This document shows, piece by piece, positions 2,511 to 64,000 of a stretch of DNA of 64,000 nucleotides (positions are counted from its first letter, which is position 1; each line of letters opens with the position of its first letter). The DNA is from an uncultured Acidobacteriota bacterium (GTDB taxonomy: Bacteria; Acidobacteriota; Thermoanaerobaculia; Thermoanaerobaculales; Sulfomarinibacteraceae): contig CAVWAW010000023.1 in assembly GCA_963753035.1 (NCBI GenBank), forward strand, positions 14,944-78,943. The letters are read 5' to 3'. A program made the position numbers and the translations under genes. The notes beneath the pieces are model-generated. The model searched no databases and was not told the origin of the DNA. It saw only the letters and a program-made list of their open reading frames with translations.

Positions 2511-2580
2511 GTCGAACACGGTATGGGTGCCTGGCATCCCCTCCCATCGCCTTGCCGGAGCGGATGACCCGAAACCCCGG

Positions 2581-4680: not shown

Positions 4681-4737
4681 GCTAGATCAGACGCTCCAGC
4701 CCTCACGTATTGTCAATTGAGCTCCGGAAAGGCGAGT

Positions 4738-5182: not shown

Positions 5183-5299
5183 GGCTCAGGGAAACCCGAG
5201 TCAGCAACAGCCGCAGGGACAGGAACCGCGGCAGCGGCAGTTGTGCCTAGAAGCGCGATGCCGTACCCGATGACCCCATCGCCTCGCCGGAGCGGATGA

Positions 5300-19815: not shown

Positions 19816-19985
19816 CATAGTGGAACCGCAAAGCCGCTAAGGTCGCAAAGGTGCCGCAAAGTTTTTGCTGACTCATCGCAGACATCGAGGCGGAATGACG
19901 CGTTCCGGTTAGCAGAGAGCCCGGGTCAAAACCGCGATGCTTTGCGGGATCTTCGCGATCTTCGCGTCTTGGCGGTTCCATTGTG
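19816..19985. repeat. long imperfect hairpin repeat (family 3), second copy
   Basis: Arms are CATAGTGGAACCGCAAAGCCGC...CGCAAAG (19816-19861) and CTTTGCGGGATCTTCGCGATCTTCGCGTCTTGGCGGTTCCATTGTG (19940-19985). They look largely complementary by eye (not counted). Contains a tandem ATCTTCGCG. Confidence 0.7.
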
Positions 19986-20105
19986 CCTTCCGGCACGGAT
20001 CGCGGCTGCCGGAAGTCCAAATTCGCAGCGGTTGTCCTACCAGCACCTTGGAGAAGCTACCGATGTTTCGGTCGCGGACACGCAGCTGTGCCACAATGCG
20101 CGCCC

Positions 20106-22305: not shown

Positions 22306-22309
22306 CCTG

Positions 22310-22697
22310 CCATCGCACCATCGCATTCTCAACGCAAAGGCGCAGAGCCATCGCGAAGATTGGCTCACATTGACACGGAACACGCGTAGCATTCTTCGGC
22401 ACCGCACCTCCAGGAAGCGAATGCCCCGAGGTCATCTCGGGCGACGTCCGGCTTCTGGAGATTCGCCGGAATCTGACAGAGTCCGTGCGATGACCCATTG
22501 TTGCGATGTTGAGTCTCAGCGCCTTTGCGCCTTTGCGCCTCTGCGTTGAAGTGCGATGGTGCGACGGCCCTAGCCTGCGATGGCTCTGCGTCTCTGCGTC
22601 TCTGCGTTGAAATGCGATGGACCGATGGCCCCGACCATTGCGATGACAGAGGAATATCCATGCACCTCGATCTGTGTCCTTCTGTGTGATCCGTGAC
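22310..22697. repeat. long-hairpin repeat (family 2) with 8-mer tandem repeats (CCTTTGCG, TCTCTGCG)
   Basis: Left arm is CCATCGCACCATCGCATTCTCAACGCAAAGGCGCAGAGCCATCGC (22310-22354). Right arm is GCGATGGCTCTGCGTCTCTGCGTCTCTGCGTTGAAATGCGATGG (22577-22620). Tail is ATCTGTGTCCTTCTGTGTGATCCGTG (22669-22694). Related to 55660-55790. Confidence 0.7.
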
Positions 22698-31629: not shown

Positions 31630-32214
31630 TCAGCGCCGGCGGAGTTCGTAAAGGACCTGCTTGGCAACGGCCTTGAGGGTCTCGAAAACACCCATCCCCT
31701 GCACCGCGATGGCCTCGAAGGTGGGCTCACCCTTGAAGTTGAGGGCACGGTACATCTGATCTACCGGGACCGCCGTGGGCAGGTCACGCTTGTTGAACTG
31801 GAGAACATAGGGGATGCTCTTGAGATCGAAGCCGTTCTCGTCGAGATTGTCCGCGAGGTTCTTCATCGACTCCATGTTGGCGTCCATCCGCGCTTCCTGC
31901 GAATCGGAAACAAAGACCACGCCATCGACACCCTTCAAGATGAGCTTGCGGCTTGCGTCGTAGAAGACCTGGCCGGGTACGGTGTAGAGGTGGAACCGGG
32001 TTTTGAACCCGCGCACCGACCCTAAATCGAGCGGGAGAAAATCAAAAAAGAGGGTTCGATCGGTCTCCGTCGCCAGGGAAATCAACTTTCCCTTCTGCTG
32101 CGGGTTCGATTTCTCGTAGATGTACTGCAGATTGGTGGTCTTGCCCCCGAGACCGGGACCGTAAAAGACGATCTTGACGTTGATCTCACGGGCGGCGTAG
32201 TTGATGAAGCTCAT
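31630..32214 (-). CDS. mglA: Ras-like polarity/motility GTPase MglA
   Basis: Near-colinear with Myxococcus MglA as I recall it: [33 protein letters not shown]...[13 protein letters not shown]...[29 protein letters not shown]. Confidence 0.93.
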
Positions 32215-45300: not shown

Positions 45301-46710
45301 GATGACGAAATCGGCGATCTCCGGATCACCGTCGACTGCCCCTCGTGCCGACCGCCGCCCGATCACTCGAGCCTTCTGGTCTCGGCGGCGGCCCGTACTT
45401 CGGGTTCCCAGAGCAGCTTTTGGACCTCGAACCTGCAGCTGGTCAACGCCGGCGGTGAGGCGGCCACCACCTCCGTCGAGCTCCTTCCCGGTCCCGGCAC
45501 CACTCCCGCCACGGAAAGTTATGATCTCGCCCCCGGCGAAGCGATGACCCTCGATGATGTGGTGGGCGATCTGGTGGGAGGCCGCGGGTCCGGCGCCCTG
45601 CGGCTCACGTCCACAGGAGCCATGGCCGCAACCACCCGAACCTCAACCGCGGGGGATGCAGGTAGTTATGGCCAGGGTATCCCGGCGGCCGGTGAAGCCG
45701 TCATTGCATCGGTCGGAGCGGCTGTGCGGCTCTTCGGCTTCCCGGGTGATCCCGCGTTCCGGACCAATCTCGGTCTCGTCAACCCGGGGACCGACGAGGT
45801 CGACCTCATCATCCGTTTCTACGACCACGAAACCAACGAACTCGCCGATGACCACCGGACCCTCTCCGGCGGGAGTTGGATCCAGTTCAACCGGATCTTC
45901 GAAGACCTCGAGATTGCCGCCGAGGCGGCGCTCGTCGTCATCCGCCAGACCTCCATCAAGGGCAGTTTCTCTGGTTACGCCTCGGTGGTGGACGAACGCA
46001 CCAGCGACCCGACCTATCTCGGCCCCACCGGCATCGGTCGAGTCGGCGATCCGTTGTGGATCTCCGCGGTCGCCCATACCACCGGCGTCGGCGGCGCCCA
46101 GTGGCGCACCGATCTCACCCTCTTCAACCCGGGGACCGGCGATCTCATCACGAGTCTCGAGCTCCTCGGTCCGGATGGCGTCCTGGCCTCGACCAACGTG
46201 CACGTGCCGAAGGGTTGGGTCATCAGCTTTCCTGATGTGGTCGCCGAGACCCTCGGCGCTTCCGGCGCCGGCGCGCTGCGGATCAGCCCGACCCTCGGCA
46301 TCGTCATGGCCAGCAGCCGCACCTATGCGACGACGCCCGACGGCAGCTATGGCCAGGGCATCCCCGGGGTGACCGAGGGCGACGTCTTCACCGACGGCGA
46401 ACGCGGGTTTCTTCCCGGTTTGCGACAGGACGGAGTTTTTCGAACCAACATCGGCTTTGCCAACACCGGTGATGAGCCCGTGGACATCGACGTCGCAGCC
46501 CACGCGGCCGATGGCGGCGCGATCCAGACCGCGAGCTATCGCGTTGAAGGATCATCGTGGGTGCAACTGAATCAACCCCTGCCCGATGGAACCGCGTACG
46601 CAACCGTCACGAGCGCCACACCGGGAGCGCGCTACCTGGCCTACGCCTCGGTCGTCGATCGCGAGACCGACGATCCAACCTATATCGCCGCGGTCCGCGC
46701 GGCAGAATGA
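42372..46710 (+). CDS. large secreted Asp-box (BNR) beta-propeller protein with a pre-peptidase-C-like domain and two C-terminal copies of the ~200-aa module; signal peptide out of frame (+1 disruption between about 42421 and 42474)
   Basis: Eleven SxDxGxTW-type boxes (SDDGGETW, TTDGGLSW, SADAGMTW, SSDGGSTW, STDGGASW and others). MKSRLFGALMILIVVSLAFGSPVGG, encoded from ATG 42372, stops at 42474. The main 1429-aa frame opens at 42421. Confidence 0.8.
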
Positions 46711-48519: not shown

Positions 48520-49975
48520 TCAGGCTTTCATGGTCCGCAGCACCTCGATGGCGCTTCGCAGACGCCATCGGCAGATCTCCTTGCCGAGGACCGCCATGGT
48601 GTCAAACAACGGCGGTGTCGCCACCCTTCCGGTGACGGCGATTCGGATCGGCATGAAGAGTTCCTTTGGTTTGAGCTCGGCGCCCTCGCAGAAGCCGCGC
48701 AGCGCCTCCTCGATGTCGCCGACCGACCAGTCGAGGATGGGATCCAGGGCCTCCTCGAGCAGGAGCCGGAAAATCTTTGCAGTCTGCGGTGGGGTGCGAT
48801 CCCGCATGACCATCTTGGTCTTGGCCGCGTCGTCGTAGTCGACCCCCCCGACAAAAAAGAAGTCCGTGTAGGAGAAGAATTCGGCAAGAGTCTCAATGCG
48901 TTCGTGGGCCAGCGGCAGGACCTCGAGAAGATAGCGGTCGCTGAGCAGGCCGGTCCGCAGGCGAAGCAAGAGGTCTTCAGAACTGCAGACTCCTGATGTG
49001 CTTTCCATTCAGCCAGCTCAACTTGGTCAGATCAAAGACCGGGCCACCGAGACTGATGTCTTCCAGGCGAAAGGCCTCGACGAACTCCTGGAGGGAAAAT
49101 TCCTCGCGCTCGTCGGGCATGGCCCAGCCCATGAGGGCGAGATAGTTGAGCATGGCCTCGGGCAGATAGCCCGCCCGGCGGAAGTAGTTCAGACTCACCG
49201 GGTTCTTGCGTTTCGAGATCTTCGATTTGTCGGCGTTGCGCAGCAGCGGCAGATGGCAGAAGACCGGCGTTTCCCAGCCGAACGCCCGGTAGAGCTGGAC
49301 GTGTTTGGGCAGCGACGAGATCCATTCCTCGGCGCGGATGACGTGGGTGATCTCCATGAGGTGGTCATCGACGACGTTGGCGAGGTGATAGGTGGGGTAG
49401 CCGTCCGATTTGACGAGCACCTGATCGTCGATCTGCACCGCTTCGAAGCTCACTTCGCCGCGGAGCAGGTCATCAACGACGATCTCACCTTCGGTGGGCA
49501 TGGCGAGGCGGATGACGTGGGCCTCGCCCGCCGCCCGCCGCCGCTCCGCTTCGTCCTTGTCGATGGACCGGCAGTGACCGTCGTAACCGAACCGCCCCTT
49601 GGCTGCCTTCTGTTCGGCGCGGAGCTCCTCGAGCCGTTCCCGGGTGCAGAAACACGGGTAGGCGTGCCCGCTCGCCACGAGCATCTCGGCGTGCATGGTG
49701 TAGATCTCCGAGCGCTCGCTCTGACGATAGGGGCCGAATGGGCCGCCGACATCCGGGCCCTCGTCCCAGTCGAGACCGAGCCAGCGCAGGGCATCGAAGA
49801 TCATCGACTCGCTCTCGGTTGTGCTGCGCTGTTGGTCGGTGTCCTCGATGCGCAGGACAAACTGACCGCCGCTCTGACGAGCGAGGGCGTAGTTGAAGAG
49901 CGCGACATAGGCGGTTCCCACATGGGGGTCGCCGGTGGGGCTCGGAGCGATTCGGGTGCGCACGACTTCAGTCAT
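48520..49975 (-). CDS. gltX: glutamate--tRNA ligase, split by a single extra base near 48985
   Basis: The N-terminal ORF (48977-49975) reads [16 protein letters not shown]...KISKRKN...[14 protein letters not shown]-stop. The adjacent frame continues [14 protein letters not shown]...[23 protein letters not shown] to 48520. The junction reads IRSL|SSEDLL once one nucleotide is removed. Confidence 0.85.
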
Positions 49976-50831: not shown

Positions 50832-51137
50832 GCAATTCGTCGGACGAATTGCGGCGGCGCTCACCGGGTTCGCGCCGATAGGAACCGTCTCAGGGGCTGG
50901 GACCGAGTCAGCTTCCGGCACCGCGTTCGGGGCAGCTGACGGCGGCACCGTCCGCATCCGTGCCTGTGCCCGAGACCATGACCGATGAATCCTCGGTCCG
51001 TGAACCCGTTTTTGGCCCCGGCACCCTCTGGCCCCCTTCCGGGAGTCAACACGCCGCAGAGTTCTGAGAAAGCGTCATGTCATACTGATTGTGGTTTGTG
51101 CCCGCCACGCTTAGGACTCGGGAGGAGACTCGACGAT

Positions 51138-52172
51138 ATGCGAAGGTGCAACAACTGTGAGCAAGAGATCGAGATGGATGTGGCGACCTGCCCCCACTGC
51201 GGCTTCGATCAGGTGGACCACACGACGGTGTCCGCCGACCTTCCTGCTCCTTTGGGCGCTCGAATCGCAGGCGGCGCGCTTGTCGCGAACGCGATCTTGG
51301 TTCTGATCGGGGCGTTCATCGATATCGAGAATGTCGCACCGATCAATCCGATCGGCGCCGCCGTCTTGGACATCGTTCTCGGGATCGCGCTGGTTCGGGG
51401 TGCCCGTAAGTTCGTCGTCTGGGTGATCGTCAGAGTGATTCTGGGCTTGCTCCTCTTTTCCGGTCTCGCGATCGCTTCGAGTGATTGGGTCAGCTTCTGG
51501 ATTCAGATCGTTCTGTCCTCGGGTGTCCTGCTGCTCCTGGTGGGGAATGCGTCCCGCCCGAGGATCATCGGAGGAGTGGCGCTGCTCTCACTTTACATGG
51601 TGGCGGCTGTCGCGGGGCTGCAGCAGATGGCCACCGGTAAGAGCTTTCTCACCCCACTGTACTCCAGAGGGCTCTATGACCTCGACCCCATCGAACCCAG
51701 CCGGCTTCATGGCAGCACGGTTGCGTATACCATCGAGCCGCCTGTTGACGGTTGGCAGCTGCGGACACCCGAGGCCGTTCGCCGTGACAACCCGGTGGTC
51801 GATCACTGGCTCGTCAACCCGGCTATGGACGCTCACATCCTGGTGATAGCCGAGTCGGTCGATCCGGGTAGCGAACTCAGCGTCGAGGCCCTGTCCGATG
51901 CGGTCATCTCGAACTTCGAGGCGGCGATCGAGGACTTTTCGTTGGACGGCCGCATCGCGCGTACGATTCTCGGCCGTCAATCGGAGGTCCTCGAACTCTC
52001 CGGCACCGTCGAGGCCCTTTCGATTCGTTACCGCGTGGCGTGTGTCGCTTCCGGGAACACAGCCATCCAGATCATCTGCTTCGCCGGACCGAGGGTGTTC
52101 CCATCGGTGGAAAAAGACTTCGACCGCGTAATCGATTCGCTCTTTATCGGTCCCTGGGAATCGTCTCCGTAG
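51138..52172 (+). CDS. zinc-ribbon / multi-TM / C-terminal globular domain hypothetical protein
   Basis: GGAGGAG lies before ATG 51138. MRRCNNCEQEIEMDVATCPHCGF (CxxC...CxxC), 4-5 TM helices, then about 170 aa of unknown domain. Visibly more A/T-rich codons than neighbouring genes. Confidence 0.7.
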   Translation: MRRCNNCEQEIEMDVATCPHCGFDQVDHTTVSADLPAPLGARIAGGALVANAILVLIGAFIDIENVAPINPIGAAVLDIVLGIALVRGARKFVVWVIVRVILGLLLFSGLAIASSDWVSFWIQIVLSSGVLLLLVGNASRPRIIGGVALLSLYMVAAVAGLQQMATGKSFLTPLYSRGLYDLDPIEPSRLHGSTVAYTIEPPVDGWQLRTPEAVRRDNPVVDHWLVNPAMDAHILVIAESVDPGSELSVEALSDAVISNFEAAIEDFSLDGRIARTILGRQSEVLELSGTVEALSIRYRVACVASGNTAIQIICFAGPRVFPSVEKDFDRVIDSLFIGPWESSP

Positions 52173-52314: not shown

Positions 52315-55035
52315 CTACTCCCCTTCTTTAAGCAGGGCCGTGTAGATGTCTCCCGTCATCTCACCGGCATTGAAGACAAGCCGGTCGGCTCCTACCTCAA
52401 GCGTCCACATGTGCTTCGCAAACGACAACATCTTCATGGACGAGCCGTGCGCATGGGCCACCGGAAACGAATCGTCCATGGGCTCTTTGGTAACCGGGTC
52501 GAGGGACTGGCCCCAGACGCACAGGAAGTCATCGCGTTCCGAGAGGTAGTACACGGTGTCGCCATCGGCGGACCACCGGGGGGAGCCGACCCAGGAGTCG
52601 CCCGCCGCGATCTGCACCCACTGTTCGGGAGGCGCTGGAGGTTCCCGGACAGGTACCAAGAAAAGGGCAACCGTACCGTCAGGCTCGCCGGTCTGGATTG
52701 CGAGCCATCGGTCGTCCCGGGACAGATCCGTGTCCAGCAGCGCCTGATTCTCGAGTTCGAGGACCGTCCTCTCGACCCCATCGACGATACGAAGGTGCGA
52801 CAGCCTCCGGCCCCAGTCGACCAGGACATGGGCCCCGTCGGTGAAGAAGTCCACGGCGAGGCAATCTCGACAGAGCTCACGGCCCACCGGGTCATCCGTG
52901 GGCGCCACCGACGTGACCCACTGTCCGTCGACGCGATGCCGCCAGGCGACGAGCGAGCCGTCTCCACTCAGCCGCGGAAAAAGCGACGTGACCGCTATGG
53001 GATAGGTCAACGGCACCGTTTCTGTTCCAGTCGTCCGATCCTGGATGTGGATCTCGTTACGTGGGCTGTCTCGGGACCCGGCGTAGGTGGAGTACACAAG
53101 GCGGTTGCCGTCGCGGGTCAGGGAGAATGAAAATTTCGGAGAGGCGTCGTCGGTGATCGGTCGGAGGGCGCCGACGGCTCGCCCGCTTTCCCGGTCGAGA
53201 GCGACTTCCCACAGGTGAACCACCCAGGAGAAGCGGTCCAAGGCCATGCGGCCGTCGGCGGACACCTTCGGCACCCATGTCATCCCCGGCCCGGTGGTGA
53301 GCGACTCCACCGGTGCGCTCAGATGCCCGTCCTCGGAGATCGGCGCCCGGTAGAGGTTCATCCCCTCGATGGTCGTGCCGGAGATGAAGAGGAGCTGTCC
53401 CGGCAGCCAGACGGAGGGGAAGTTGACCATGTCGGGCATGACACCGGCCGCCTTCGCCCCGCTCGACCACGGTTCGCCGCCCTCAACCGGCGCAACCCAC
53501 CAGTCCTGTCGGCCGGGATCGTCCAGGGGACCGCCGAAGAAGATCACCAGCCGGCCATCGGGTGAAAAAACCGGACCTGAGCTGCTGGGTGGTGGGCGCA
53601 CCCCCCAGCCCGGGACGAGGGGTGCCGGCCGGCCTCCGTGAATGGGAGCTCTGAACATCCGGCGAAGGAACCCGGGTGACCACGCCGGGTCTTCCGAGTA
53701 GACGAATTCGGTGCCGTTCGGCGCAAACTGGGGAAAAATCCCGCGATCGGCCACTTTTTTCAATCCGCCACCGAGGGCGTTGATAATGTAGATCCCTCCT
53801 CCGTCCCGATGCGACCCGAATATGAGGCGCGAGCCGTCGGGGGAGAACGACGGGTGCCAATCATCCGCGGGGTGGTCGGTGAGTCGAGTCGGCTGAGGTT
53901 GGTTGATGTGCCGCACCCAGATGTCGGAGCCGCCCTCGCCGGCTCGATCCGACGAAAAGGCCACGAGATTGCCATCGGGCGAGATCGCCGGAGCGAAGCT
54001 GGCGCCGGCGTCATAGGTCAGGCGGCGGAGCTCCAGCGGTCGCGATCCCGCCTGATCCCCACGATTGAAGATCGTTGCCACCGCGACCGCTATCACGACG
54101 ACGCCGGCTATCCCGAGTACGACGGGCAAAGGGACCGACCGACGGCTCTTTTCGGGACCCGGCACGACCCTGCGGCCGGAGTCGGTGTCCTCCTTGAGAT
54201 CCTCGAGCACCGCCCTGAGATCCGACAGGCTCTGCCAACGTCGCGACGGTTTCTTGCGCAGACACCGAAGCACCGCCCGATCCACCTCCGGGGGCAGAGC
54301 CGGCACGATGGCGGTCGGCGGCTCCGGTTCCTCTTCGCGGATGGCCGCGATGGTCTCTAGAATCGTCCCACGGCGAAACGGATGCTGTCCTGTCAGCATC
54401 TCGTACATCAACACACCGAAGGCGAAGACATCGCTCCGAGTGTCTACGGGCTCCCCGGACGCCTGTTCGGGAGACATCCAACCAACGGTCCCAAGAACCG
54501 CCCGTTCTTCGGTCAGCGACGCCTCGTCGGGAGCCAGGGTCGGGGCCTCCGGGTGCGAAAACGGCGTCTCGGTGAGCTTGGCGAGCCCGAAGTCGAGCAC
54601 CTTGACGCCGTCCGAGGTCACCATCACATTGGCCGGTTTGAGATCCCGGTGCACGATCCCGGCCTCGTGTGCTCGCGCCATGGCGTCGGCGGTCCCGATG
54701 CCCAGGCCGAGCGCCTCGCTCAACGGTGGCCGTCGCCGCGCCAGGAGAGACTCCAGCGTTTCTCCCTCGATCAGCTCCATGACTAGCACGTCTTGATCCT
54801 CAACCGTCACCACGTCGTGCACGGCAACGATCCCGGGATGGTTGAGGGCGGAGGCGGCCTTCGCTTCCTGTAAGAATCGCTGCCGGCGATCCGGATCCGA
54901 AGTTTTGCCTGGCGGCAGCACCTTGAGCGCGACAAACCGATCGAGCAGCGTGTCCCGAGCCTTGTAGACGACCCCCATGCCGCCCTGGCCGAGCCGCTCG
55001 ACGATCCGATAACGATCGATGGTCGTGCCGATCAT
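52315..55035 (-). CDS. transmembrane Ser/Thr protein kinase with periplasmic TolB-like (PD40/WD40) beta-propeller repeats
   Basis: LGQGGMGVVYKA..VALKVL..HRDLKPANVM..DFGLAK..GWMSPE. One TM helix (VVLGIAGVVVIAVAVATIF). Repeated SPDG..(I/V)(A/I)F..DR.G...I(W/Y) units. Confidence 0.92.
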   Translation of the reverse strand: MIGTTIDRYRIVERLGQGGMGVVYKARDTLLDRFVALKVLPPGKTSDPDRRQRFLQEAKAASALNHPGIVAVHDVVTVEDQDVLVMELIEGETLESLLARRRPPLSEALGLGIGTADAMARAHEAGIVHRDLKPANVMVTSDGVKVLDFGLAKLTETPFSHPEAPTLAPDEASLTEERAVLGTVGWMSPEQASGEPVDTRSDVFAFGVLMYEMLTGQHPFRRGTILETIAAIREEEPEPPTAIVPALPPEVDRAVLRCLRKKPSRRWQSLSDLRAVLEDLKEDTDSGRRVVPGPEKSRRSVPLPVVLGIAGVVVIAVAVATIFNRGDQAGSRPLELRRLTYDAGASFAPAISPDGNLVAFSSDRAGEGGSDIWVRHINQPQPTRLTDHPADDWHPSFSPDGSRLIFGSHRDGGGIYIINALGGGLKKVADRGIFPQFAPNGTEFVYSEDPAWSPGFLRRMFRAPIHGGRPAPLVPGWGVRPPPSSSGPVFSPDGRLVIFFGGPLDDPGRQDWWVAPVEGGEPWSSGAKAAGVMPDMVNFPSVWLPGQLLFISGTTIEGMNLYRAPISEDGHLSAPVESLTTGPGMTWVPKVSADGRMALDRFSWVVHLWEVALDRESGRAVGALRPITDDASPKFSFSLTRDGNRLVYSTYAGSRDSPRNEIHIQDRTTGTETVPLTYPIAVTSLFPRLSGDGSLVAWRHRVDGQWVTSVAPTDDPVGRELCRDCLAVDFFTDGAHVLVDWGRRLSHLRIVDGVERTVLELENQALLDTDLSRDDRWLAIQTGEPDGTVALFLVPVREPPAPPEQWVQIAAGDSWVGSPRWSADGDTVYYLSERDDFLCVWGQSLDPVTKEPMDDSFPVAHAHGSSMKMLSFAKHMWTLEVGADRLVFNAGEMTGDIYTALLKEGE

Positions 55036-55836: not shown

Positions 55837-58026
55837 CTACAGGCTCCCCTTGATCTCGGGCAGCCCACCGACACCCTTGAGCTCGATCATGATCCGGAAG
55901 TCGCGGGTCGGATAGAGCCCGATCTTGAGATCGCGGTACTCGGCGGAGACGGCCCAACAGCCGCCCTTCCAGCCGATCTGATAGCGCTGCTGCTGGATCT
56001 CCTTCTGCTCGATGTCGTAGGCGATGTGGAGTGCGGCGGTGACCGGGAAACCCGGCTTCATGAAGTTGATCAGGGTCCGGACCTGGGATGAAACCCGATC
56101 GCCGGAGATGGGGTTGAAGCCTGCGTACCAGGTCAGGCTGAGCGATCCGAGTCCGTTGCGGCCCAAACCTGTCAACGAGGTGGAGGTCAGATTCCGATTG
56201 AGCCAATCGTAGCTCGCCCGAGCATCGAGGCCGGTGCCGGGGCTCGGGGTCAGGCGCAGGGAGCCCGTCATCGGCCCCCAGCCGCTCGTGGTTCCGTCGG
56301 GCCCGAAAGTGAGAGGCCTCGAAAACGAGAAATCCTGAAAGACCTCGAACGAACCAAGCTCGACGGAGCTCAGGCTCTTTTCCGAGCGACCAAAGAGGCG
56401 GTTGGCCAGCGACAGCCTGACCCGGTTGTCCAGGGGTGTGCTGTCGACCTCGTCGGCAATGGGGATCTCGCTATTGTCCTCCCCGATTCCCTCCAGGTAG
56501 GCGTATTCGATCCGCGGCTCGAGGAGGTGTTTGAATTTCGAAAAACCCCACCGGCCCTTGTTGAAAACCCGCGATATCGAGGGACCGCCGATGTCGACCC
56601 CGGCTGCGACAAAGGCACGGTCGATGGGCTCGTCGAGGTACATGGTTTTGGTTTCGTTGTAGCGCGAGGTGTAGTAGGTGTAGCGACCCCCCACCCTCGG
56701 CGTCACGGTGAGCCACGGCGGGCCCGGCAGGGTGTAGTTGAGGGTCGGGAAAATATCGCCGCGCCAGTAGGTGCCGACCAGACCGGTGTCATCTCGAATT
56801 TGTTTGGGTGTTCGTTTGTCGACGGAGAACAGATTCACCGACGAGATGAGGTTCCAGTAGATATCGGTGTTGAACAACCGGGTCGAACGCACCCTCATCT
56901 CCGCCTCGGGAAGCCGCGCGAGGAGGCTGTCGTACGTGGTGTTCTTGTCGGGATCTCCCGAAGGGAGATCGGGATCGGTGAAGTTGAAGAACGTCAGCCG
57001 GTGGTCGGCGCTCAGATTGAGAGAGTACGGGCCCCAGCTCTGGGTGAGGAAGAGATACGAGTAGACGTCGCGCCTGGTGTTGGCCTCGAAGGTCCGGTCG
57101 AAGTCCTGGAAGAAATCAGGATCCGAGAGATTCTCGAGCTGCGCCTGGAGACGAAAGCCGAGGACATCGGCCTGATCGTAGTGACCGTTGACCCGCCACT
57201 GCCACTCGGCGTTCGCCTTGTCGTGGATGGCGTAGAGGTCGAGCAACCCGGCGCCATCCTGGAACGGCGCCCACCGGAGTTCATTGCCGATGCCGTAAAA
57301 TCCCTCGGAGAAATACTCGAAAACAAAGGTCGTGTCCCAACTTCGGCCGAGGGGAAAGTAAACCGGCAGGCCGATGTAGGCGCCGAGGCGGTCGGAGTAA
57401 CCAAAGCCCGGCATCAAGAGACCCGGAGATCGTTCCTTCTTGATGGGCCAGACCATATAGGGAAGATAAAAGACCGGGACGCCCTGGATCTTGACGGTCG
57501 AGCTCGTGAATTTGCCATAGCCCTCCACCTCGAGATTGGCCTTTTTGAGGTGGAAGCTCCACGGCGGGTGCTTTGTCTCGTCCTCACAGGTCGTAAAGAC
57601 GGCCTTGTCGACCCGGTAGCGGGTTTCGTCGAGTTTTTCGATGGATCGTCCCGAGAAGGTGTACATGGGCGAGACGAATCCCGTGGCGTTCAAAAAAAGC
57701 CCGGTCTTCGACCGCAGATTGTAGTGAAGTTCATCGGCGGTAAAACGGCTCGGTCCCTGATCGACGACGACGTCGCCCCGAGCCACGAGATCCATGGTCG
57801 CCCCGTTGTAGAGCACTTCGTCGCACGCGAGGACAACATCCTGGTAGTAGATCTTGACATTGCCGGTCCACAGACAGAGCTCTTCCTCTTCCTGGCAGTC
57901 CTGCTGATCCGCGGTCATCCGGAGGGCACCGTCCTGGGCCGGTTTGGGCTCCGTCGCGGACTCCTGCGCCCAACCGCCGGCGGCGACCATGGCCGCCACG
58001 ACAAAGATGGCGAGCGTGCGTTTCAT
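55837..58026 (-). CDS. lptD: LPS-assembly outer-membrane protein LptD (OstA family)
   Basis: Start at MKRTLAIFVVAAMVAAGGWAQ (ATG 58026). OstA N-terminal domain (LWTGNVKIYYQDVVLACDEVLYN...), then FYLPYMVWPIKKERSPGLLMPGFGYS and a long beta-barrel. Confidence 0.88.
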   Translation of the reverse strand: MKRTLAIFVVAAMVAAGGWAQESATEPKPAQDGALRMTADQQDCQEEEELCLWTGNVKIYYQDVVLACDEVLYNGATMDLVARGDVVVDQGPSRFTADELHYNLRSKTGLFLNATGFVSPMYTFSGRSIEKLDETRYRVDKAVFTTCEDETKHPPWSFHLKKANLEVEGYGKFTSSTVKIQGVPVFYLPYMVWPIKKERSPGLLMPGFGYSDRLGAYIGLPVYFPLGRSWDTTFVFEYFSEGFYGIGNELRWAPFQDGAGLLDLYAIHDKANAEWQWRVNGHYDQADVLGFRLQAQLENLSDPDFFQDFDRTFEANTRRDVYSYLFLTQSWGPYSLNLSADHRLTFFNFTDPDLPSGDPDKNTTYDSLLARLPEAEMRVRSTRLFNTDIYWNLISSVNLFSVDKRTPKQIRDDTGLVGTYWRGDIFPTLNYTLPGPPWLTVTPRVGGRYTYYTSRYNETKTMYLDEPIDRAFVAAGVDIGGPSISRVFNKGRWGFSKFKHLLEPRIEYAYLEGIGEDNSEIPIADEVDSTPLDNRVRLSLANRLFGRSEKSLSSVELGSFEVFQDFSFSRPLTFGPDGTTSGWGPMTGSLRLTPSPGTGLDARASYDWLNRNLTSTSLTGLGRNGLGSLSLTWYAGFNPISGDRVSSQVRTLINFMKPGFPVTAALHIAYDIEQKEIQQQRYQIGWKGGCWAVSAEYRDLKIGLYPTRDFRIMIELKGVGGLPEIKGSL

Positions 58027-58216
58027 GACGTCCCGCATCCGGCGATGTTGCCCCCGAGGGAGACCCGCCGGCGGTTCGATTCGGTCAAGAACCCGGTCAT
58101 CGATTGGATGTCCACGCGCTCCTCTCCGGTCGTGACCGGCCCGCACTCCCTCCTCGGATGGTAAGAGCAGGACACGAGACTCAGGTCATTGTAATCGGTG
58201 CCCGTACAATGGGCCT

Positions 58217-58633
58217 ATGCGCTTCCTTGGAATCGATCCCGGCGGCAAACGCCTCGGTCTCGCGTTGGGCGATGATCTTACCGGTTTCGCGACCCCGTTG
58301 GAGGTCGTCAGTTACCAGGGCTCGGTCCACGCGGTGAATCTCATAGTCGAGGCCATGGACGAATACGGTGCCGACATCGCGGTCATCGGTCTCCCGACTT
58401 TGGCCGACGGTTCTCAGACACCGGCCTGTACGAGATCGCACGCGTTGGCGGGAGCGCTTGCGGAACTCGGTGTGGAAACGGCGTTGCAGCCGGAGTTCTT
58501 GACCACGAACGAGGCGCGGCGGCGGGCGAGATCGTCAAACCGTCGACCCGGGCAACCGGTCGACGACATCGCCGCCCAGGTGATTCTCGAGGAGTATCTC
58601 GCGAGTCGACCGGCAAAGGACGTGTCGCGATGA
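58217..58633 (+). CDS. ruvX: Holliday-junction-resolvase-like nuclease YqgF/RuvX
   Basis: MRFLGIDPGGKRLGLALGD...VIGLP...DERLTT-like FLTTNEA. Confidence 0.88.
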   Translation: MRFLGIDPGGKRLGLALGDDLTGFATPLEVVSYQGSVHAVNLIVEAMDEYGADIAVIGLPTLADGSQTPACTRSHALAGALAELGVETALQPEFLTTNEARRRARSSNRRPGQPVDDIAAQVILEEYLASRPAKDVSR

Positions 58634-59643
58634 AACTCCGAACCGTTGTCGCGGCCCTCGTCGTGTCGGTCGTCACCGGTCTCGCCGCGGTCGGCGGATC
58701 GGCCTTCTGGCTCTGGACACAACTCTACGAGCACCGCAGCCCGGCCGCGGTCGAACTCGCAATCCCCGAGGGTCTTTCCGGCCGTGAGGTGCTGAACATC
58801 CTCAACAAACACGATCTTCTCCCATCCACCCTCGCCGGCCGGCTCTATCTGCGATTCGCAGCTGAGGGCCGATCGATTCGCTTCGGCACCTATCAACTCG
58901 ACGCGGCGAGCCGGCCGGTGGATGTCCTCGATCGCCTTCTCGACGGCCGGGTCGAGATGATCGCGGTGACGGTGGTGGAGGGATCGGATCTCGAGACCGT
59001 GGCGATTCAGATGGCCGCCGCCGGAATTGGCAGCGAGGCCGAGTGGCTCACCGTCGCCCAACGGGTTGATTGGATCGAGGATCTCGCTCCTGAAGCGCCC
59101 TCCCTCGAAGGGTTTCTGTTTCCGGATACCTACCAATTCGCAGAGGGCATCGGGGTCGAGGCAACGGCCCGCCACCTGGTGGATCGATTTCGAGCCGTGT
59201 TGACGGATGAGGTTTCGCACGGCCCGGAGCTCTGGGGCACAGTGTTCGATGTCGTGACCCTCGCTTCTCTGGTCGAAGCAGAGACCGCGTTGGCCACAGA
59301 ACGCGGCCGAGTCGCCGGGGTTTATCTCAACCGACTGGGCCGCGGCATGCTTCTCCAGTGCGACCCAACGGTTGTCTTCGCTCTCAAGCGCCGGGACGAA
59401 TGGACGGGCCGCCTGCTCCGGATCCACTGGGGCGTGGACGACCCGTACAACACCTATCGTTACCCCGGTCTACCTCCGGGGCCCATCAACTCCCCGGGCC
59501 GGGAGGCCATTCGGGCCGCCATCTCGCCCGACGAGCACAACTACCTCTACTTTGTGGCGTCGCCCGGCGGCGGCCACGCTTTCTCGCAAACCCTGGCCGA
59601 GCACAATCAGGCGGTGGCGAGATGGCAGCGCTCCCGCCGTTGA
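58630..59643 (+). CDS. mltG: endolytic murein transglycosylase MltG (YceG family)
   Basis: N-terminal TM helix; LEGFLFPDTYQF, ASLVEAE and VYLNRL..GMLLQCDPTV motifs. 4-nt overlap with ruvX. Confidence 0.9.
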   Translation: MKLRTVVAALVVSVVTGLAAVGGSAFWLWTQLYEHRSPAAVELAIPEGLSGREVLNILNKHDLLPSTLAGRLYLRFAAEGRSIRFGTYQLDAASRPVDVLDRLLDGRVEMIAVTVVEGSDLETVAIQMAAAGIGSEAEWLTVAQRVDWIEDLAPEAPSLEGFLFPDTYQFAEGIGVEATARHLVDRFRAVLTDEVSHGPELWGTVFDVVTLASLVEAETALATERGRVAGVYLNRLGRGMLLQCDPTVVFALKRRDEWTGRLLRIHWGVDDPYNTYRYPGLPPGPINSPGREAIRAAISPDEHNYLYFVASPGGGHAFSQTLAEHNQAVARWQRSRR

Positions 59644-59685
59644 CCCAAGACCGATCCCCGGTGTACGCTGGAGGATGGAGGGCAA

Positions 59686-61671
59686 ATGGCTGAACCCTAT
59701 CGCGTTTTCGGCTCCTGCATTTTGCTCAAAGAGGTATTCGAGGACGATCTCGGTCATCTGTTCAGAGCTGGAACCATCGCGGACGAGTCCCTCGATCGCT
59801 CCATTTGGCTGCGGGTTTTCGACGGACCCGGTCTTCCCTCGCAAGCGATCATCGCGTCGTTCGAGGAAGCCCGGTCGATCGCCGAAGCCCTTCACGGATC
59901 CCAGCTTCCCACACACCCGCTCTTCCTTGACGCTGACGGCGTGCCGGGTCTCGCCTGCGACTATGTTCCGGGACAGCCGCTGAACCGCGTTTTGGCGCGC
60001 GCACGGGACGAGGCTTTCCCTCTCCAGCCGGACAACACCCTGTTGATCGTCGAGAAGCTCGCCCTCGCTCTGACCGCGGGAGAATCAATTTCGCTTTCGG
60101 GAAAGCCCCTGGCACACGGTTTTCTGCACCCGGGTCTAATCTATTTGAGCAATGACGGAGAGGCCCTCGTCACCGGCTTCGGTGTCGGCCCGACCCTGCT
60201 AGATGCTTGTAATGATCCCGACGCGGCCGCCGGCGTGCGCGCGTATCTGGCGCCTGAGGCACTCGCGGATCGAATGCCTTCGCAGCAAGCCGATGTTTAT
60301 TCACTTGGCGCGATTCTCTTTCATCTGTTGACCGGCACCGCGTTGCCGGTTAACCCGGCCGAGCGCGCCGCCGCGCTCGAAGCGGCGCACGTGGCCTGGG
60401 ATGGAGAGGGCCTCGAGCAGGACATCAGCGCCATCTTGAACCGCTCCCTTGCGCCGGCGCCCGCCGATCGTTTTGCTTCTTCCGCCGAGTTCCGGACCGA
60501 ACTCGACCGGCTGATCTATGGCGGCGCCTATTCGCCCACCACCTTCAATCTCGCTCTCTTCATGGATCGCCTTTTCAGAGCGGAAATCGAGGAAGACGAA
60601 CTTGCCCTGAAGCACGAGGCGGAGATCGACGTGGGGCCGTATTTCAGGATCAAGGCCGAGGAACCCGCGGTGTCGCTCGAGGCCGATGACGCTGGAGTGG
60701 ATGACCTGACTCTTTCTCCAGAAGCGGTTCCTCCGACCAGGGACGGCGGCGGCAGGAAGCTTCTATGGGGAGTCCTCGGTGGCGCGGTGGTCATCGCCGT
60801 GGCCGTGGGTGTTTTCTGGCTCGGTCGCGGAACCGGACCGCAGCAGCCTCCGCCCGAGCCCACACCGACGGCCGCCGAGATCGCTGCCAGCAGGCAGGCA
60901 CAGGACGATCGGCTCCGGGAACTGACCCAGGCGATGGTCGCGGAGATGATGGCCGAGCGCGAAGAGGAGATCCGACAGGAGCTCATCGCCCGACAGACCA
61001 GGATCGTAGAGCTTCAGCGGCGCCTGCAGCAGAGTGAACGCCGCGCGACCCAAGGCGCGGCGGCGGCCGCGAGTGAGGCCGAGACCCAGAAAAAGCTGAT
61101 GGCCGAGATCGAGGAGCAGGAAAGGGCGCAGCGGGAGCAAGAGGACGCGCTGGAAACCGAGCGTCAGGAAGCGATGAATGAAGCGGCCCAACAGGCTTCT
61201 GCAGAAACCCGCACGATCGGCGGCGGCGCCCTAGCGACGGACCAACCCAAACCGGCAGCCCAGGAGACCAAAACCGCTGAGAACGCGGTGGCCGTCACAA
61301 CGCCCAGTCCCACATCGGTGCCGCCTCGACCGACCGCCGCGCCGGTCCGGCCTCCGGTCGAATACGGAGACTTCGTCAAACCCGAGGATGTGGATACCCG
61401 CCCGGTTGTGGTGAAGACTCAGTCCTTGGTCTGGCCGAGAAATGCCCTACGCTCGAACGGCAAGGGTGTGGTCGTTGTCCAGTTGACGGTCAATCCGAGC
61501 GGCGCGGTCGACGAAGTCGTCGTCATGCGCGCAGACCACACCGGCTGGGGCATTCCGGAAACCGCCGTCGAAGCTGCGTCAGGCTATCGCTACAAACCAG
61601 GCACCAAAGACGGGGTGGCCATCACGACGCACGCGTTCATCACCTGGCGCTACGACTTCACCCAGGAATGA
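59686..61671 (+). CDS. degenerate (pseudo)kinase domain - TM helix - Glu/Gln-rich coiled-coil and Pro-rich linker - TonB C-terminal domain
   Basis: The kinase fold is recognisable (AYLAPEAL, DVYSLGAILFHLLTG), but HRDLKPxN reads HGFLHPGL and DFG reads GFG. TM helix is LLWGVLGGAVVIAVAVGVFWLG. The C-terminus is VVKTQSLVWPRNALRSNGKGVVVVQLTVNPSGAVDEVVVM...GYRYKPGTKDGVAI (TonB_C-like). Confidence 0.8.
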   Translation: MAEPYRVFGSCILLKEVFEDDLGHLFRAGTIADESLDRSIWLRVFDGPGLPSQAIIASFEEARSIAEALHGSQLPTHPLFLDADGVPGLACDYVPGQPLNRVLARARDEAFPLQPDNTLLIVEKLALALTAGESISLSGKPLAHGFLHPGLIYLSNDGEALVTGFGVGPTLLDACNDPDAAAGVRAYLAPEALADRMPSQQADVYSLGAILFHLLTGTALPVNPAERAAALEAAHVAWDGEGLEQDISAILNRSLAPAPADRFASSAEFRTELDRLIYGGAYSPTTFNLALFMDRLFRAEIEEDELALKHEAEIDVGPYFRIKAEEPAVSLEADDAGVDDLTLSPEAVPPTRDGGGRKLLWGVLGGAVVIAVAVGVFWLGRGTGPQQPPPEPTPTAAEIAASRQAQDDRLRELTQAMVAEMMAEREEEIRQELIARQTRIVELQRRLQQSERRATQGAAAAASEAETQKKLMAEIEEQERAQREQEDALETERQEAMNEAAQQASAETRTIGGGALATDQPKPAAQETKTAENAVAVTTPSPTSVPPRPTAAPVRPPVEYGDFVKPEDVDTRPVVVKTQSLVWPRNALRSNGKGVVVVQLTVNPSGAVDEVVVMRADHTGWGIPETAVEAASGYRYKPGTKDGVAITTHAFITWRYDFTQE

Positions 61672-61691
61672 CGAGAGTTCGCGGAGAATGA

Positions 61692-61720
61692 ACGAGGCCG
61701 AGCGCGATGCTCGGCCTCGT
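61692..61720. terminator. 12-bp GC hairpin between convergent genes (candidate bidirectional terminator)
   Basis: ACGAGGCCGAGC-gcgat-GCTCGGCCTCGT. No clear U-tracts. Confidence 0.45.
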
Positions 61721-61796
61721 CAGTCATCACTCACAGCTTACGCGTAGCGCACCCGCCCAGAAATTTCTGACTGGGCGGTACGAGCCGGCTGCGGGT

Positions 61797-62090
61797 CTAC
61801 TTCTCGACGCGTTCGCGAAGAGTCTTGCCGGGCTTGAAGTGAACGTACTTCTTCGCCTTGATGGTGATGGTTGCACCGGTGGCCGGGTTGCGGCCCTGGC
61901 GCTCACCACGGCTCTTGGTGGCAAAGGTCCCAAAGCCGGGAATCGTCACCTTTTCGCCCGCGTCGAGGGCGGAGGCGATGATTCCTTTTCGGGGCTGGGC
62001 CGAGAACATCACATCGACGATATCCGCAGCTTTGCCCTGGCTCAGGCCGGTTTTCTTCGCAAGCTTCAGTGCCATTTCGGTCTTGTTCAT
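61797..62090 (-). CDS. hup: HU family DNA-binding protein
   Basis: MNKTEMALKLAKKTGLSQGKAADIVDVMF...IPGFGTFATKSRGERQGRNPATGATITIKAKKYVHFKPGK. Confidence 0.93.
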   Translation of the reverse strand: MNKTEMALKLAKKTGLSQGKAADIVDVMFSAQPRKGIIASALDAGEKVTIPGFGTFATKSRGERQGRNPATGATITIKAKKYVHFKPGKTLRERVEK

Positions 62091-62223
62091 TCAATCCTCC
62101 GAACGCAAATGTAAACCCATAGTGGATGCGAAAAACGCAACTGTCAAGGGCAAATCGAGGGTATTACACGATCTTGAATCCCTTGCGTTCATTCTCGGAC
62201 CGCGATAGCGTGAGGCTCAGGGG

Positions 62224-62988
62224 GTGAGTATGGATCTCAGACTCGGCGGCAAACGCGCGCTCGTAACCGGTTCATCCAGAGGCATCGGTCGGGCGATTGC
62301 GCTCTCCCTCGCGGACCTCAAAGTCGATGTTGCCATCAACTATCTTCGCGGCCGAGATCGCGCCGAAGCAACCGCGAAAGAGATCGAGGACCGCGGGGTC
62401 CGCTGCCTCCTCGTCAAGGGCAACGTGGCCAATCCGGAACACGTCGAACGGATCTTTAGCACCATCGATTCCGAGTGGGGAGGTCTCGAAATAGTGATTT
62501 CCAACGCCGCATCCGGTGTGTTGAAGTCTGCTAAAGAACTGACAATGCACCACTTCGACTGGGCCATGCACATCAACGCCGCGGCGATGCTGCCGCTGGT
62601 CCAGAACTTCATCAAGCTCGACTCCAAGGGCGAAAAGACCATGGTCGCCGTGTCGTCGCTCGGTGCGGTCCGCGCCATTCCGAACTACACCGCGGTCGGC
62701 GCATCCAAGGCCGCCCTCGAGTCCATGGTGCGCCACCTCGCCGCCGAACTCGCACCAGAAGGGATCCGGATCAACGCCGTGTCGGCGGGAACCGTCGACA
62801 CCGATGCACTGCTCCATTTTCCCAACCGTGAAGAACTGCTCGAGGCCGCCCGCAGGAGAACACCGGCCGGGCGTCTACTGAGTCCTCAGGATGTCGCCAA
62901 CACGGTGATTTATCTCTGCACGGACTATTCATCGATGATCCACGGTCAGACCCTCATCGTCGACGGAGGCTACTCGATCCTGGCATAA
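62224..62988 (+). CDS. fabL: enoyl-[acyl-carrier-protein] reductase, FabL-type SDR
   Basis: ALVTGSSRGIGRA...NNAASGVL...SSLGAVRAIPNYTAVGASKAALE...DTDALLHFPNREELLEAARRRTPAGR. Colinear with Bacillus FabL as I recall it. Confidence 0.8.
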   Translation: MSMDLRLGGKRALVTGSSRGIGRAIALSLADLKVDVAINYLRGRDRAEATAKEIEDRGVRCLLVKGNVANPEHVERIFSTIDSEWGGLEIVISNAASGVLKSAKELTMHHFDWAMHINAAAMLPLVQNFIKLDSKGEKTMVAVSSLGAVRAIPNYTAVGASKAALESMVRHLAAELAPEGIRINAVSAGTVDTDALLHFPNREELLEAARRRTPAGRLLSPQDVANTVIYLCTDYSSMIHGQTLIVDGGYSILA

Positions 62989-63129
62989 GTGACCCGGGTC
63001 ACACCGGGATCGCGCCGATCGGAGCCATTTAAATGGCTCGTGGTGCTACGAAAACCTCCGCCCCCGAGATCGCAGCCGTTTCCAGCTACGCGGAATCTTG
63101 GCGCCTCCCGGGCGTGTCCGGGCTGCGTC

Positions 63130-63280
63130 CGTAGCAACGGCAGGGGCAGCGGCAGCGTCCGTGACTGTGGCAGTGGCGGTGGCAGTGGCAGTGGCAGTGG
63201 CAGTGGCCGTGACCGTTACCGTATCCCTGGCCGCGACAGTTACCGTATCCGTAGCTGCGGTCGCGTTCCGGCACGTCACG
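63130..63280. repeat. hexamer microsatellite block, (GGCAGT)n core at about 63168-63212
   Basis: TGGCAGTGGCGGTGGCAGTGGCAGTGGCAGTGGCAGTGGCCGTGACCGTTACCGTATCC...GTTACCGTATCCGTAGC. Lies between the convergent fabL and uvrA genes. Related to the 50213-50416 block. Confidence 0.8.
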
Positions 63281-63461
63281 GACGACAGCCAGGATGGCTA
63301 TCGCTACACCACACAGAACGGCCGCTGTGTAGCGACAGGCTTCCAGCCTGTCGGGGACACCTTCCGGGCGAGAAACCGCCGACACGAAGTCCGACACCAT
63401 TCAGGCTACGCCCGGCCCACTCTCAATCGCGATGTCTTCGCGTTCTTTGCGTCTTAGCGGT

Positions 63462-64000
63462 TCAACCCTGCGATGGACTCAACAACGGCTTCAAATATCG
63501 ACCGGTGTGCGACGCCTTGCAGGCGGCGACCATTTCCGGGGTTCCCTCGACGAGGACCTCACCGCCGCCGTCGCCACCCTCGGGGCCGAGATCGACGATC
63601 CAATCGGCGGTCTTGATGACATCGAGGTTGTGCTCGATGACGATGATCGTGTTACCCCGATCGACCAGGGCGTGGAGCACTGCGAGGAGCTTCCGCACGT
63701 CATCGAAATGGAGACCGGTGGTCGGTTCGTCGAGTAGATAGAGGGTTTTGCCCGTGGCGCGCTTGGCCAGTTCCCGAGAGAGCTTGATCCGCTGCGCCTC
63801 ACCACCCGACAGAGTCGTCGCCGGTTGGCCGAGGTGGAGATAGTCGAGACCGACGGACACCAGGGTGTCGAGCACCCGGACGATCTTGGGCACCGAGGCG
63901 AAGAGTTCCTGCGCCTGGCGGACCGTGAGATCGAGGACCTGGGCGATGTCGAGTCCCTTGTAGTGAACCTCAAGGGTTTCCCGGTTGTAGCGCCGCCCCC
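63462..64000 (-). CDS. uvrA: excinuclease ABC subunit UvrA, C-terminal part; 5' end beyond the window
   Basis: [91 protein letters not shown]. The frame stays open to position 64000. Confidence 0.93.

Follow-up and report, generated by a model that had tools for sequence, protein, structure and literature searches.

In the Agl-Glt gliding machinery of Myxococcus xanthus, GltJ (AgmX) joins a 377-amino-acid (aa) cytosolic part (zinc ribbon (ZnR), linker and GYF domain) through a transmembrane helix and a flexible periplasmic region to a TonB-C domain, and it serves as a structural adaptor between the gliding machinery and the cytoplasmic MglA and AglZ, with its switching controlled from the cytoplasmic side (PMC11135422). 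MviN (MurJ) of Mycobacterium tuberculosis, of the pseudokinase family ActPs3, combines a pseudokinase, a transmembrane part and an extracytoplasmic sugar-binding domain, and PknB phosphorylates its tail, which recruits FhaA to hold back peptidoglycan synthesis (PMC12599244). Here we analysed a 64,000-nucleotide (nt) stretch from an uncultured Acidobacteriota bacterium of the Sulfomarinibacteraceae (GCA_963753035.1, contig CAVWAW010000023.1, positions 14,944 to 78,943; hereafter the window), in which the gene at 59686..61671 (+ strand) encodes a 661-aa protein that joins a degenerate protein kinase domain, through one transmembrane helix and a long helical rod, to a TonB-type C-terminal domain. 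What is new here is the joining of a bitopic pseudokinase to a TonB-C adaptor; both kinds were known separately, and this is not a categorically new system.

Bacterial pseudokinases have been little explored. An atlas of bacterial serine/threonine kinases (STKs) and a 2025 review describe seven pseudokinase families (bioRxiv 10.1101/2025.01.12.632604; PMC12599244), none of which has a TonB-type (TonB_C) domain or matches the motifs HGF and (W/L)LRVF, and in which neither TonB nor Acidobacteria is mentioned. No description of a pseudokinase plus TonB_C architecture was found in the literature searched, and databases label the members by their C-terminal domain only. The first-pass annotation of this stretch had named membership of an already characterised family as a refutation, and no such family was found.

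Gene family and kinase-like domain

The open reading frame (ORF) starts with ATG, and the encoded protein matches full-length homologues at E = 0. A first homologue search returned 644 clusters (90% identity), of which the best 120 are 44-100% identical and nearly all full-length, while a profile built from distant members added 1,182 further 90%-identity clusters, giving a total of more than 1,800; because these are homologous over the full length, we regard the ORF as a real gene and not a chance one, and it is intact and full length compared with its homologues. In an exhaustive search of representatives, 206 clusters (50% identity) were obtained with E < 1e-30, including full-length matches down to 26% identity. 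The names attached to the members are all 'TonB family protein', occasionally 'serine/threonine-protein kinase'. The organisms belong to Thermoanaerobaculia (a class of Acidobacteriota), Thermoanaerobaculales, Candidatus Sulfomarinibacteraceae, Thermoanaerobaculum and unspecified Acidobacteriota metagenome-assembled genomes (MAGs), with a few members labelled Holophagae, Terriglobia, Methylomirabilota or Chondromyces; the family is one of Thermoanaerobaculia and was not found in Myxococcota, where a survey had also been proposed. Most genomes carry one copy, and two are present in CAZCEX01 and CAWFFJ01. A tandem pair of pseudokinase-TonB_C paralogues (699 and 651 aa) lies directly after ruvX-mltG in locus L086 (positions 1543-5603; MAG GCA_027078415.1).

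The protein's N-terminal part has a protein-kinase fold, as had been proposed. Its Pfam Pkinase score of 31.1 bits lies slightly below the 31.7-bit threshold, and NCBIfam returned only partial, far sub-threshold matches, the best being PknB_PASTA_kin (E 1.2e-16). A sequence search of the PDB (phmmer) gave as best match the kinase domain of M. tuberculosis PknB (E 1e-11, aa 85-279), and the AlphaFold2 (AF2) model of the whole protein, computed from an 18-sequence family alignment (mean predicted local distance difference test (pLDDT) 79), contains a confident kinase fold at about aa 6-278 (pLDDT ~90, likewise over aa 11-280), for which Foldseek against the PDB ranked the bacterial Hanks kinases PknA, PknB and PknE at the top (E 1e-12 to 1e-13, target TM-score ~0.7).

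To place the catalytic residues, the family profile was aligned by hmmalign to the active STK encoded at 52315-55035 of the window, which carries GQGGMG, VALK, HRDLKPAN and DFG, and residues were counted in 353 aligned full-length homologues (590-800 aa, down to 26% identity). The gene and the features of its cytoplasmic part are as follows.

59686..61671, + strand: whole gene, 661-aa bitopic membrane protein (pseudokinase, transmembrane helix, rod, TonB_C), from the ORF, full-length homologues and AF2
59670..59682, + strand: Shine-Dalgarno-like GGAGGATGGAGGG (GGAGG/GGAGGG type) directly 5' of the ATG, read from the sequence
59686..60519, + strand: pseudokinase domain, aa 1-278, predicted cytoplasmic, from the PknB, Foldseek and Pkinase matches
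59740..59757, + strand: degenerate, acidic Gly-rich loop E19-D-D-L-G-H24 in place of GxGxxG, aligned with GQGGMG of the STK
59803..59820, + strand: beta3 strand I-W-L-R43-V-F, the Lys of VAIK replaced by Arg (298/353)
60115..60138, + strand: catalytic-loop remnant HGFLHPGL, HRD replaced by H144-G145-F146 and Asn by L151, from the alignments
60175..60183, + strand: GFG in place of DFG (G164 in 334/353, Asp in 3)
60520..60579, + strand: family signature block G279-GAYSPTTFNLALFMDRLFR-298, which starts the helix aa 286-311 after the kinase domain, from conservation
60619..60759, + strand: acidic, variable, disordered cytoplasmic linker, aa 312-358 (pLDDT 30-47, low conservation)

All motifs quoted in the first-pass annotation were found where it had placed them, namely HGFLHPGL at aa 144-151, GFG at aa 164-166, AYLAPEAL at aa 186-193 and DVYSLGAILFHLLTG at aa 203-217, and the loss of HRD, DFG and the glycine-rich loop that it had deduced from them extends across the family. 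In the catalytic loop, H144 is present in 350, G145 in 347, F146 in 294 and L151 in 275 of the 353 homologues. At position 146 the other residues listed are A, L, C and S, with no Asp among the 343 sequences covered by the five most frequent residues, and at position 43 the others listed are L, Q, H and D, with Lys not among them. The alphaC Glu position is not conserved, nor is the activation segment, which is short and has no conserved phospho-acceptor. A misaligned active site that hides an intact Lys/Asp set, which had been named as the case against this reading, can be ruled out, because the alignment to PknB, which sets HRD against H-G-F and DFG against G-F-G, yields the same equivalences as the alignment to the STK, and neither contains an intact set. 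The APE motif, the DxxSxG region of alphaF and R262 are retained, which means that the structural core is preserved, and H144, H148, E159, R43 and D203 are strongly conserved. Judged from the alignments, the domain is a classical, ancient pseudokinase rather than a decayed gene, and every residue needed for phosphotransfer appears to have been lost across the family.

Nowhere is the protein more conserved than just behind the kinase domain, in a stretch (aa 284-298, P284-TTFNLALFMDRLFR298) that is invariant in the close subfamily A1. F287 is found in 352, A290 in 351, L289 in 346, T285 in 342 and T286 in 341 of the 353 homologues, and AF2 predicts confident helices at aa 286-296 and 298-311 (pLDDT 82-91). 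The block has no meaningful match in Pfam or the PDB. A degenerate form of its pattern occurred in 452 stretches among 185,579 species-representative genomes, 420 of these stretches encoding relatives, which makes the signature near-diagnostic for the family; together with HGF and GF(G/E), the pattern PTTFNLA(L/F)FM..LFR can therefore serve to recognise members. Such conservation points to purifying selection on non-catalytic features, and the kinase fold, though dead, is itself under strong purifying selection.

Among kinases, the closest relatives by sequence are the PASTA kinases (PknB, Stk1, StkP), which share the order kinase, transmembrane helix and cell-wall-facing domain as well as ties to cell-wall enzymes, but which are active enzymes, with PASTA repeats where the present protein has a rod and TonB_C. 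MviN likewise has an intracellular pseudokinase whose three catalytic motifs are all degraded, followed by transmembrane and extracytoplasmic parts, and its regulatory tail directly after the pseudokinase and its tie to peptidoglycan synthesis can be likened to the protein described here (PMC12599244). However, MviN reads VALT and L-s-i-d where the present family reads WLRV and HGF, and its pseudokinase is fused to a flippase with 14 transmembrane helices and a carbohydrate-binding domain, not to TonB_C, in Actinobacteria. EssB/YukC from T7SSb, a type VII secretion system, is also bitopic, with a cytoplasmic pseudokinase, one transmembrane helix and an extracytoplasmic domain, and acts as a structural scaffold (PMC12599244, PMC3526858), yet it belongs to the monoderm Firmicutes, has an unrelated external domain and lies in a T7SS gene cluster. 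The proteobacterial GLW family is fully degraded, too, and has a C-terminal transmembrane helix, but it shows GLW for HRD and LLLL/W at beta3, compared with HGF, (W/L)LRVF and Arg at the Lys position here. By their descriptions, GLW and the other described families (ActPs1-3, CP1, DLHK and DYD) are set apart from the present one, whose motifs do not fit any of them.

Membrane anchor, periplasmic rod and TonB-type domain

The remaining features of the protein lie in the membrane and beyond it.

60760..60825, + strand: single transmembrane helix, aa 359-380 (AF2 helix 359-378), from hydropathy
60871..61200, + strand: periplasmic 110-residue Ala/Glu/Gln/Arg-rich helix, aa 396-505, from DSSP of the model
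61201..61404, + strand: Pro/Thr/Ala-rich variable spacer, aa 506-573, from pLDDT <50 and composition
61405..61656, + strand: TonB-type C-terminal domain, aa 574-657, with (W/Y)P and RY(K/E)PG motifs, from Pfam, profile, AF2 and Foldseek

Exactly one hydrophobic segment is present in the 661 residues, with 358 cytoplasmic residues ahead of it. Lys and Arg are enriched on its N-terminal flank (888 vs 479 in 12-residue windows, family-wide), which fits an N-in orientation and agrees with the topology originally predicted, a pseudokinase in the cytoplasm and TonB_C in the periplasm. In TonB and TolA, an SxxxH motif couples the transmembrane helix to ExbB/ExbD and TolQ/TolR, respectively. The first-pass annotation had reported that this motif is lacking, which proved to be a property of the family: SxxxH in or near the transmembrane helix occurs in 0 of 353 members, any His in the helix in 1 of 353, and the helix sequence itself is not conserved, unlike the domains that flank it. 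The absence of exbBD genes nearby was likewise borne out and extended, since neither ExbB, ExbD, TolQ or TolR nor a TonB-dependent receptor or forkhead-associated (FHA) protein was found in a Pfam scan of 49 ORFs of the window or within 7-8 kb (contig extent permitting) of the gene in eleven annotated related loci.

Beyond the membrane, the helix at aa 396-505 is uninterrupted in the AF2 model and would measure ~16 nm if fully helical. Its composition (A23 E22 Q16 R14) confirms the Glu/Gln/Ala-rich segment described at first, but the accompanying label of a coiled coil did not hold, as the heptads are only weak, with 17% LIVMF and a hydrophobic occupancy of a/d positions of 29% in the best register. 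The segment resembles a rod of the TolA-domain-II or single-alpha-helix kind more than it does a canonical coiled coil, and neither Pfam nor the PDB contains a meaningful match to it. Good conservation is seen in the rod's first half (aa 398-455) and in the TonB-type domain, while the acidic linker, the transmembrane helix and the Pro-rich spacer (12 Pro per 55 residues in the linker) are poorly conserved.

For the C-terminal domain, Pfam TonB_C matches aa 581-657 above threshold (E 1.1e-9, 39.1 bits; threshold 24.6) and NCBIfam TIGR01352 (tonB_Cterm) comes close to its cutoff (26.0 vs 27.1 bits). A profile of the domain searched against the PDB retrieved E. coli TonB (7.7e-10), with TolA absent from the matches. 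AF2 predicts the domain confidently both alone (aa 556-661, pLDDT 95, predicted TM-score (pTM) 0.82) and within the full model (aa 574-657, pLDDT ~90), and the top 17 Foldseek matches in the PDB are all TonB C-terminal domains (TM-score 0.7-0.81), the best of them in receptor-bound state, namely 6i97_D with FoxA (TM-score 0.80 at an rmsd of 2.1 A) and 9dc4_T with TbpA (TM-score 0.81, rmsd ~2 A), whereas TolA domain III reaches only 0.3-0.45. By eye, the (W/Y)P and RY(K/E)PG motifs align with what we take to be the YP and WRYEPG of E. coli TonB. Going by the model and these matches, the predicted domain is truly TonB-type, as the first reading of the sequence had it, and not TolA-type.

Compared with TonB itself, the protein shares the sequence and fold of the C-terminal domain, a Pro-rich spacer and a single N-in/C-out transmembrane helix, but it lacks SxxxH, has an unconserved transmembrane helix, 358 cytoplasmic residues instead of about a dozen, an additional 110-residue helix and no nearby exbBD. 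With TolA it shares a transmembrane anchor, a long Ala/Glu-rich helix (by resemblance only), a small C-terminal domain of the TolA/TonB superfold and a setting among envelope-integrity genes, whereas the TonB-type C-terminal domain (see TM-scores above), the lack of an SHLS motif and the genomic context distinguish it, the latter being lptD / ruvX-mltG-gene in both subfamilies instead of tolQ-tolR-tolA-tolB-pal. GltJ has the same layout, i.e., a long cytosolic interaction region (377 aa against 358 aa in the present protein), one transmembrane helix, a flexible periplasmic region and TonB-C. It differs in having a zinc ribbon and GYF domain where the present protein has a pseudokinase (no ZnR or GYF match in Pfam), in its agl/glt cluster, which is missing here, and in its phylum; the NCBIfam GltJ model NF033761, whose cutoff is 450 bits, reaches no more than 13.8, with a match confined to low-complexity sequence. 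As the best-studied protein of this layout, GltJ would, by analogy, be the closest functional precedent. A role of a TonB-annotated protein in peptidoglycan and septum rather than in transport has also been described for SjdR of Anabaena (PMC8262864).

Gene neighbourhood

In the window, the gene is the third of an apparent operon, and the gene order reads lptD (-) / ruvX, mltG, gene (+) / HU (-), fabI (+), uvrA (-).

58217..58633, + strand: ruvX (yqgF), first gene of the apparent operon (Pfam RuvX, E 7e-26)
58630..59643, + strand: mltG, YceG-family lytic transglycosylase (Pfam YceG, E 5e-75)
55837..58146, - strand: lptD, divergent from ruvX and present in most related loci (Pfam LptD)
52315-55035, - strand: active Hanks kinase of 906 aa with PD40/TolB-like beta-propeller repeats (Pkinase E 7.6e-44; VALK, HRD and DFG intact)

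The genes ruvX and mltG overlap by 4 nt, and 42 nt separate the mltG stop (59643) from the ATG at 59686, so that the envelope neighbourhood noted at the outset, with ruvX-mltG upstream and lptD adjacent, is as described. A scan for promoters and terminators across 58000-62300 gave none that rose above the shuffled background, and the 42-nt gap was free of such sites. Two + strand ORFs further downstream (61707-62114 and 62989-63741) were rejected as operon members, being spurious and antisense to HU (61797-62090, -) and to the C-terminal part of uvrA (-), respectively. The latter gene runs to the window end and was named via related loci, the only window ORF scanned there giving a weak ABC_tran match.

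Across 78 related loci with sufficient upstream DNA, the order ruvX-mltG-gene was found in 54, with a median distance of ~59 nt from the end of the MltG match to the gene, and ruvX was followed directly by the gene in 7. Of the 17 other loci, ~10 belong to a Thermoanaerobaculaceae-like group of ~36-39% identity with lptD upstream and no ruvX or mltG by tblastn; in the rest the cluster is absent, some of these being second copies in two-locus genomes. In Thermoanaerobaculaceae-type loci (L055, L063-L067, L074, L079 and L083) mltG is gone from the cluster, ruvX is directly followed by the gene, and lptD and a thiolase gene lie upstream; the ORFs of the Thermoanaerobaculum sp. locus among them (L079), for instance, read lptD, thiolase / ruvX, gene / rho. 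Members of the distant subfamily, at 26-35% identity, have lptD, thiolase / ruvX, mltG, gene, the triad recurring at 26-33% identity, and in 5/5 of the loci of this subfamily (L084, L087-L090) a gene for a ~209-aa CsgG/LpoB-like lipoprotein lies directly downstream; in L088 it points the same way as the family gene, 88 nt away, and in the other four it is convergent. This lipoprotein is a candidate periplasmic partner. The 26%-identity member P0218 has an unrelated gene context. In none of the loci examined is a TonB-dependent receptor, sigma or anti-sigma gene found beside the gene.

The active STK at 52315-55035 had been put forward as a partner, yet its position is not conserved in related loci, even close ones, and it was rejected as a dedicated partner. 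Together with an adjoining gene for a 395-aa zinc-ribbon protein (50985-52172), it has been inserted, in this genome alone, between gltX and lptD; in the three more distant relatives L001-L003 (47-60% identity) gltX/glnS directly adjoins lptD, and the close relatives gave no STK match in the upstream DNA examined.

Possible roles, and other genes of the window

The reading that we tentatively prefer, although we hold it at somewhat less than even confidence, is that of a non-catalytic, bitopic inner-membrane adaptor, which spans the envelope and serves envelope biogenesis without being energised. By the beta-strand augmentation known from TonB, the TonB-type domain would bind a strand resembling a TonB box in a partner that belongs to the outer membrane or is associated with peptidoglycan, and this docking would proceed without energisation by ExbBD or TolQR, because the transmembrane helix has no coupling motif and is not conserved. 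On the inner side, the pseudokinase and the signature helix would form a docking or allosteric platform for cytoplasmic partners, and the helix might dimerise or accept a phosphate at S283-P-T-T286. In this way the system would couple the assembly of peptidoglycan and outer membrane to the cytoplasm, a coupling that is suggested by the operon position (lptD / ruvX-mltG-gene, with the LpoB/CsgG-like gene in the sister subfamily). Moreover, the mostly single-copy occurrence and the housekeeping-operon context argue against a sensor of nutrient receptors and point towards envelope biogenesis. Several points weigh against this adaptor, namely that its functional steps are derived from architecture and gene order, that mltG is missing from the Thermoanaerobaculaceae cluster, that ruvX-mltG is a widespread pair whose synteny within one class may be inherited rather than functional, and that the SPTT segment may be a mere helix N-cap and not a phosphosite. 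In addition, exbBD and tolQR genes are often unlinked to tonB, which makes their absence nearby weak evidence.

This last point also speaks for an energised protein, i.e., a TonB/TolA paralogue driven by an ExbBD- or TolQR-type motor encoded elsewhere, with the pseudokinase as a regulatory add-on, which we consider unlikely. Its C-terminal domain is a canonical one most like the receptor-bound state of TonB, the Pro-rich spacer and TolA-domain-II-like helix would suit such a machine, all sources name the members 'TonB family protein', and GltJ of the same layout has been proposed to contact the TolQR-like Agl motor (PMC11135422). The transmembrane helix, however, speaks against it, with no SxxxH, a single His-containing member and no conserved sequence, as do the lack of motor genes in the 64-kb window and the eleven related loci and a 358-residue cytoplasmic domain that is foreign to TonB and TolA, TonB being generally without a cytoplasmic domain (PMC8262864). 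Envelope-to-cytoplasm signalling is one possible direction of information flow through an adaptor, and the first-pass annotation had raised it as a possibility. It would correspond to an outside-in sensor with FecR-type logic, whose TonB-type domain samples TonB boxes of TonB-dependent receptors, or peptidoglycan, and reports to the cytoplasm via the pseudokinase. The topology fits, the intact TonB-type domain could by its model bind TonB boxes, pseudokinases are commonly allosteric switches (PMC12599244), and an active STK with a periplasmic PD40 propeller is encoded 4.6 kb away in the window; but this kinase is missing at the same position in close relatives, the gene usually stands as a single copy in a housekeeping operon with no receptor, sigma or anti-sigma gene beside it in the loci examined, and the short, variable activation segment holds no conserved phospho-acceptor, so that we find such a sensor improbable.

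A regulated version of the adaptor has a similarly small chance in our estimate: as an unenergised 'TonB mimic', the protein would read the state of an outer-membrane or peptidoglycan assembly factor (such as LptD, an LpoB-like lipoprotein or a TolB-like protein) by capturing a strand in the manner of TonB boxes and relay it to the pseudokinase, which would allosterically control an active Hanks kinase or be a phospho-scaffold at SPTT and so coordinate peptidoglycan strand termination by MltG with outer-membrane growth. If true, no trans-envelope checkpoint built on a bacterial pseudokinase would have been known in a diderm before it. The comparison with MviN raises a phospho-scaffold, in which a Hanks kinase phosphorylates S283-P-T-T286 and the resulting pT-x-x-L recruits an FHA protein, thereby regulating peptidoglycan synthesis or turnover (MltG). 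The near-invariance of T285 and T286, with L289 at +3, and the operon link to mltG agree with it, whereas the block is hydrophobic and a confident predicted helix in which S-P-T-T resembles an N-cap, the invariance of F287, L289, A290 and F292 hints at packing and not at a linear motif, and no FHA gene is present in the window or the annotated related loci; we regard this scaffold as rather doubtful. Finally, the strong conservation of H144, H148, E159, R43 and D203 might hint at an enzyme with relocated or different chemistry, for which precedents exist among 'pseudokinases' with new activities (PMC12599244), such as AMPylation by SelO or glutamylation by SidJ. Against such an activity, Lys, both Asp, Asn and the Gly-loop have been lost together, the loop has become acidic, no alternative acidic/basic constellation is evident, and the conserved residues belong to the structural core (HxxxxP, APE and DxxSxG), which makes an enzyme very improbable.

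If the unenergised adaptor is right, it would suggest a role of a TonB C-terminal domain outside energy transduction, as the outer end of a trans-envelope adaptor, beyond Myxococcus, and should the link to MltG, LptD and the LpoB-like protein be functional, it would reveal the way in which a little-studied diderm phylum coordinates the growth of its peptidoglycan and outer membrane with the cytoplasm. As a correction to annotation, metabolic reconstructions should not list the members among TonB energy transducers. The family is large and experimentally approachable, with members in the genomes of about 420 species and Thermoanaerobaculum as a cultivated genus.

Elsewhere in the window, gltX (48520-49975, -) is represented by two overlapping ORFs, one for the catalytic domain (48977-49975) and one for the anticodon-binding domain (48520-49008), while it is a single 484-aa gene in related loci, and the split looks like a frameshift (assembly indel or pseudogene). 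A uvrD-like helicase gene (19983-22373, +) is likewise split into an N-terminal (19983-20705) and a C-terminal part (21306-22373) with ~600 nt between them, which again hints at indel errors or gene decay in the contig. A 194-aa ORF (31630-32214, -) has a weak match to Arf-family small GTPases (E 2e-6) and may encode an MglA/Ras-like GTPase. Furthermore, a 1,429-aa protein (42421-46710, +) carries BNR/Asp-box and Sortilin-Vps10-type beta-propeller repeats, and a similar BNR/Sortilin protein is encoded near the 26%-identity family member in locus L085.

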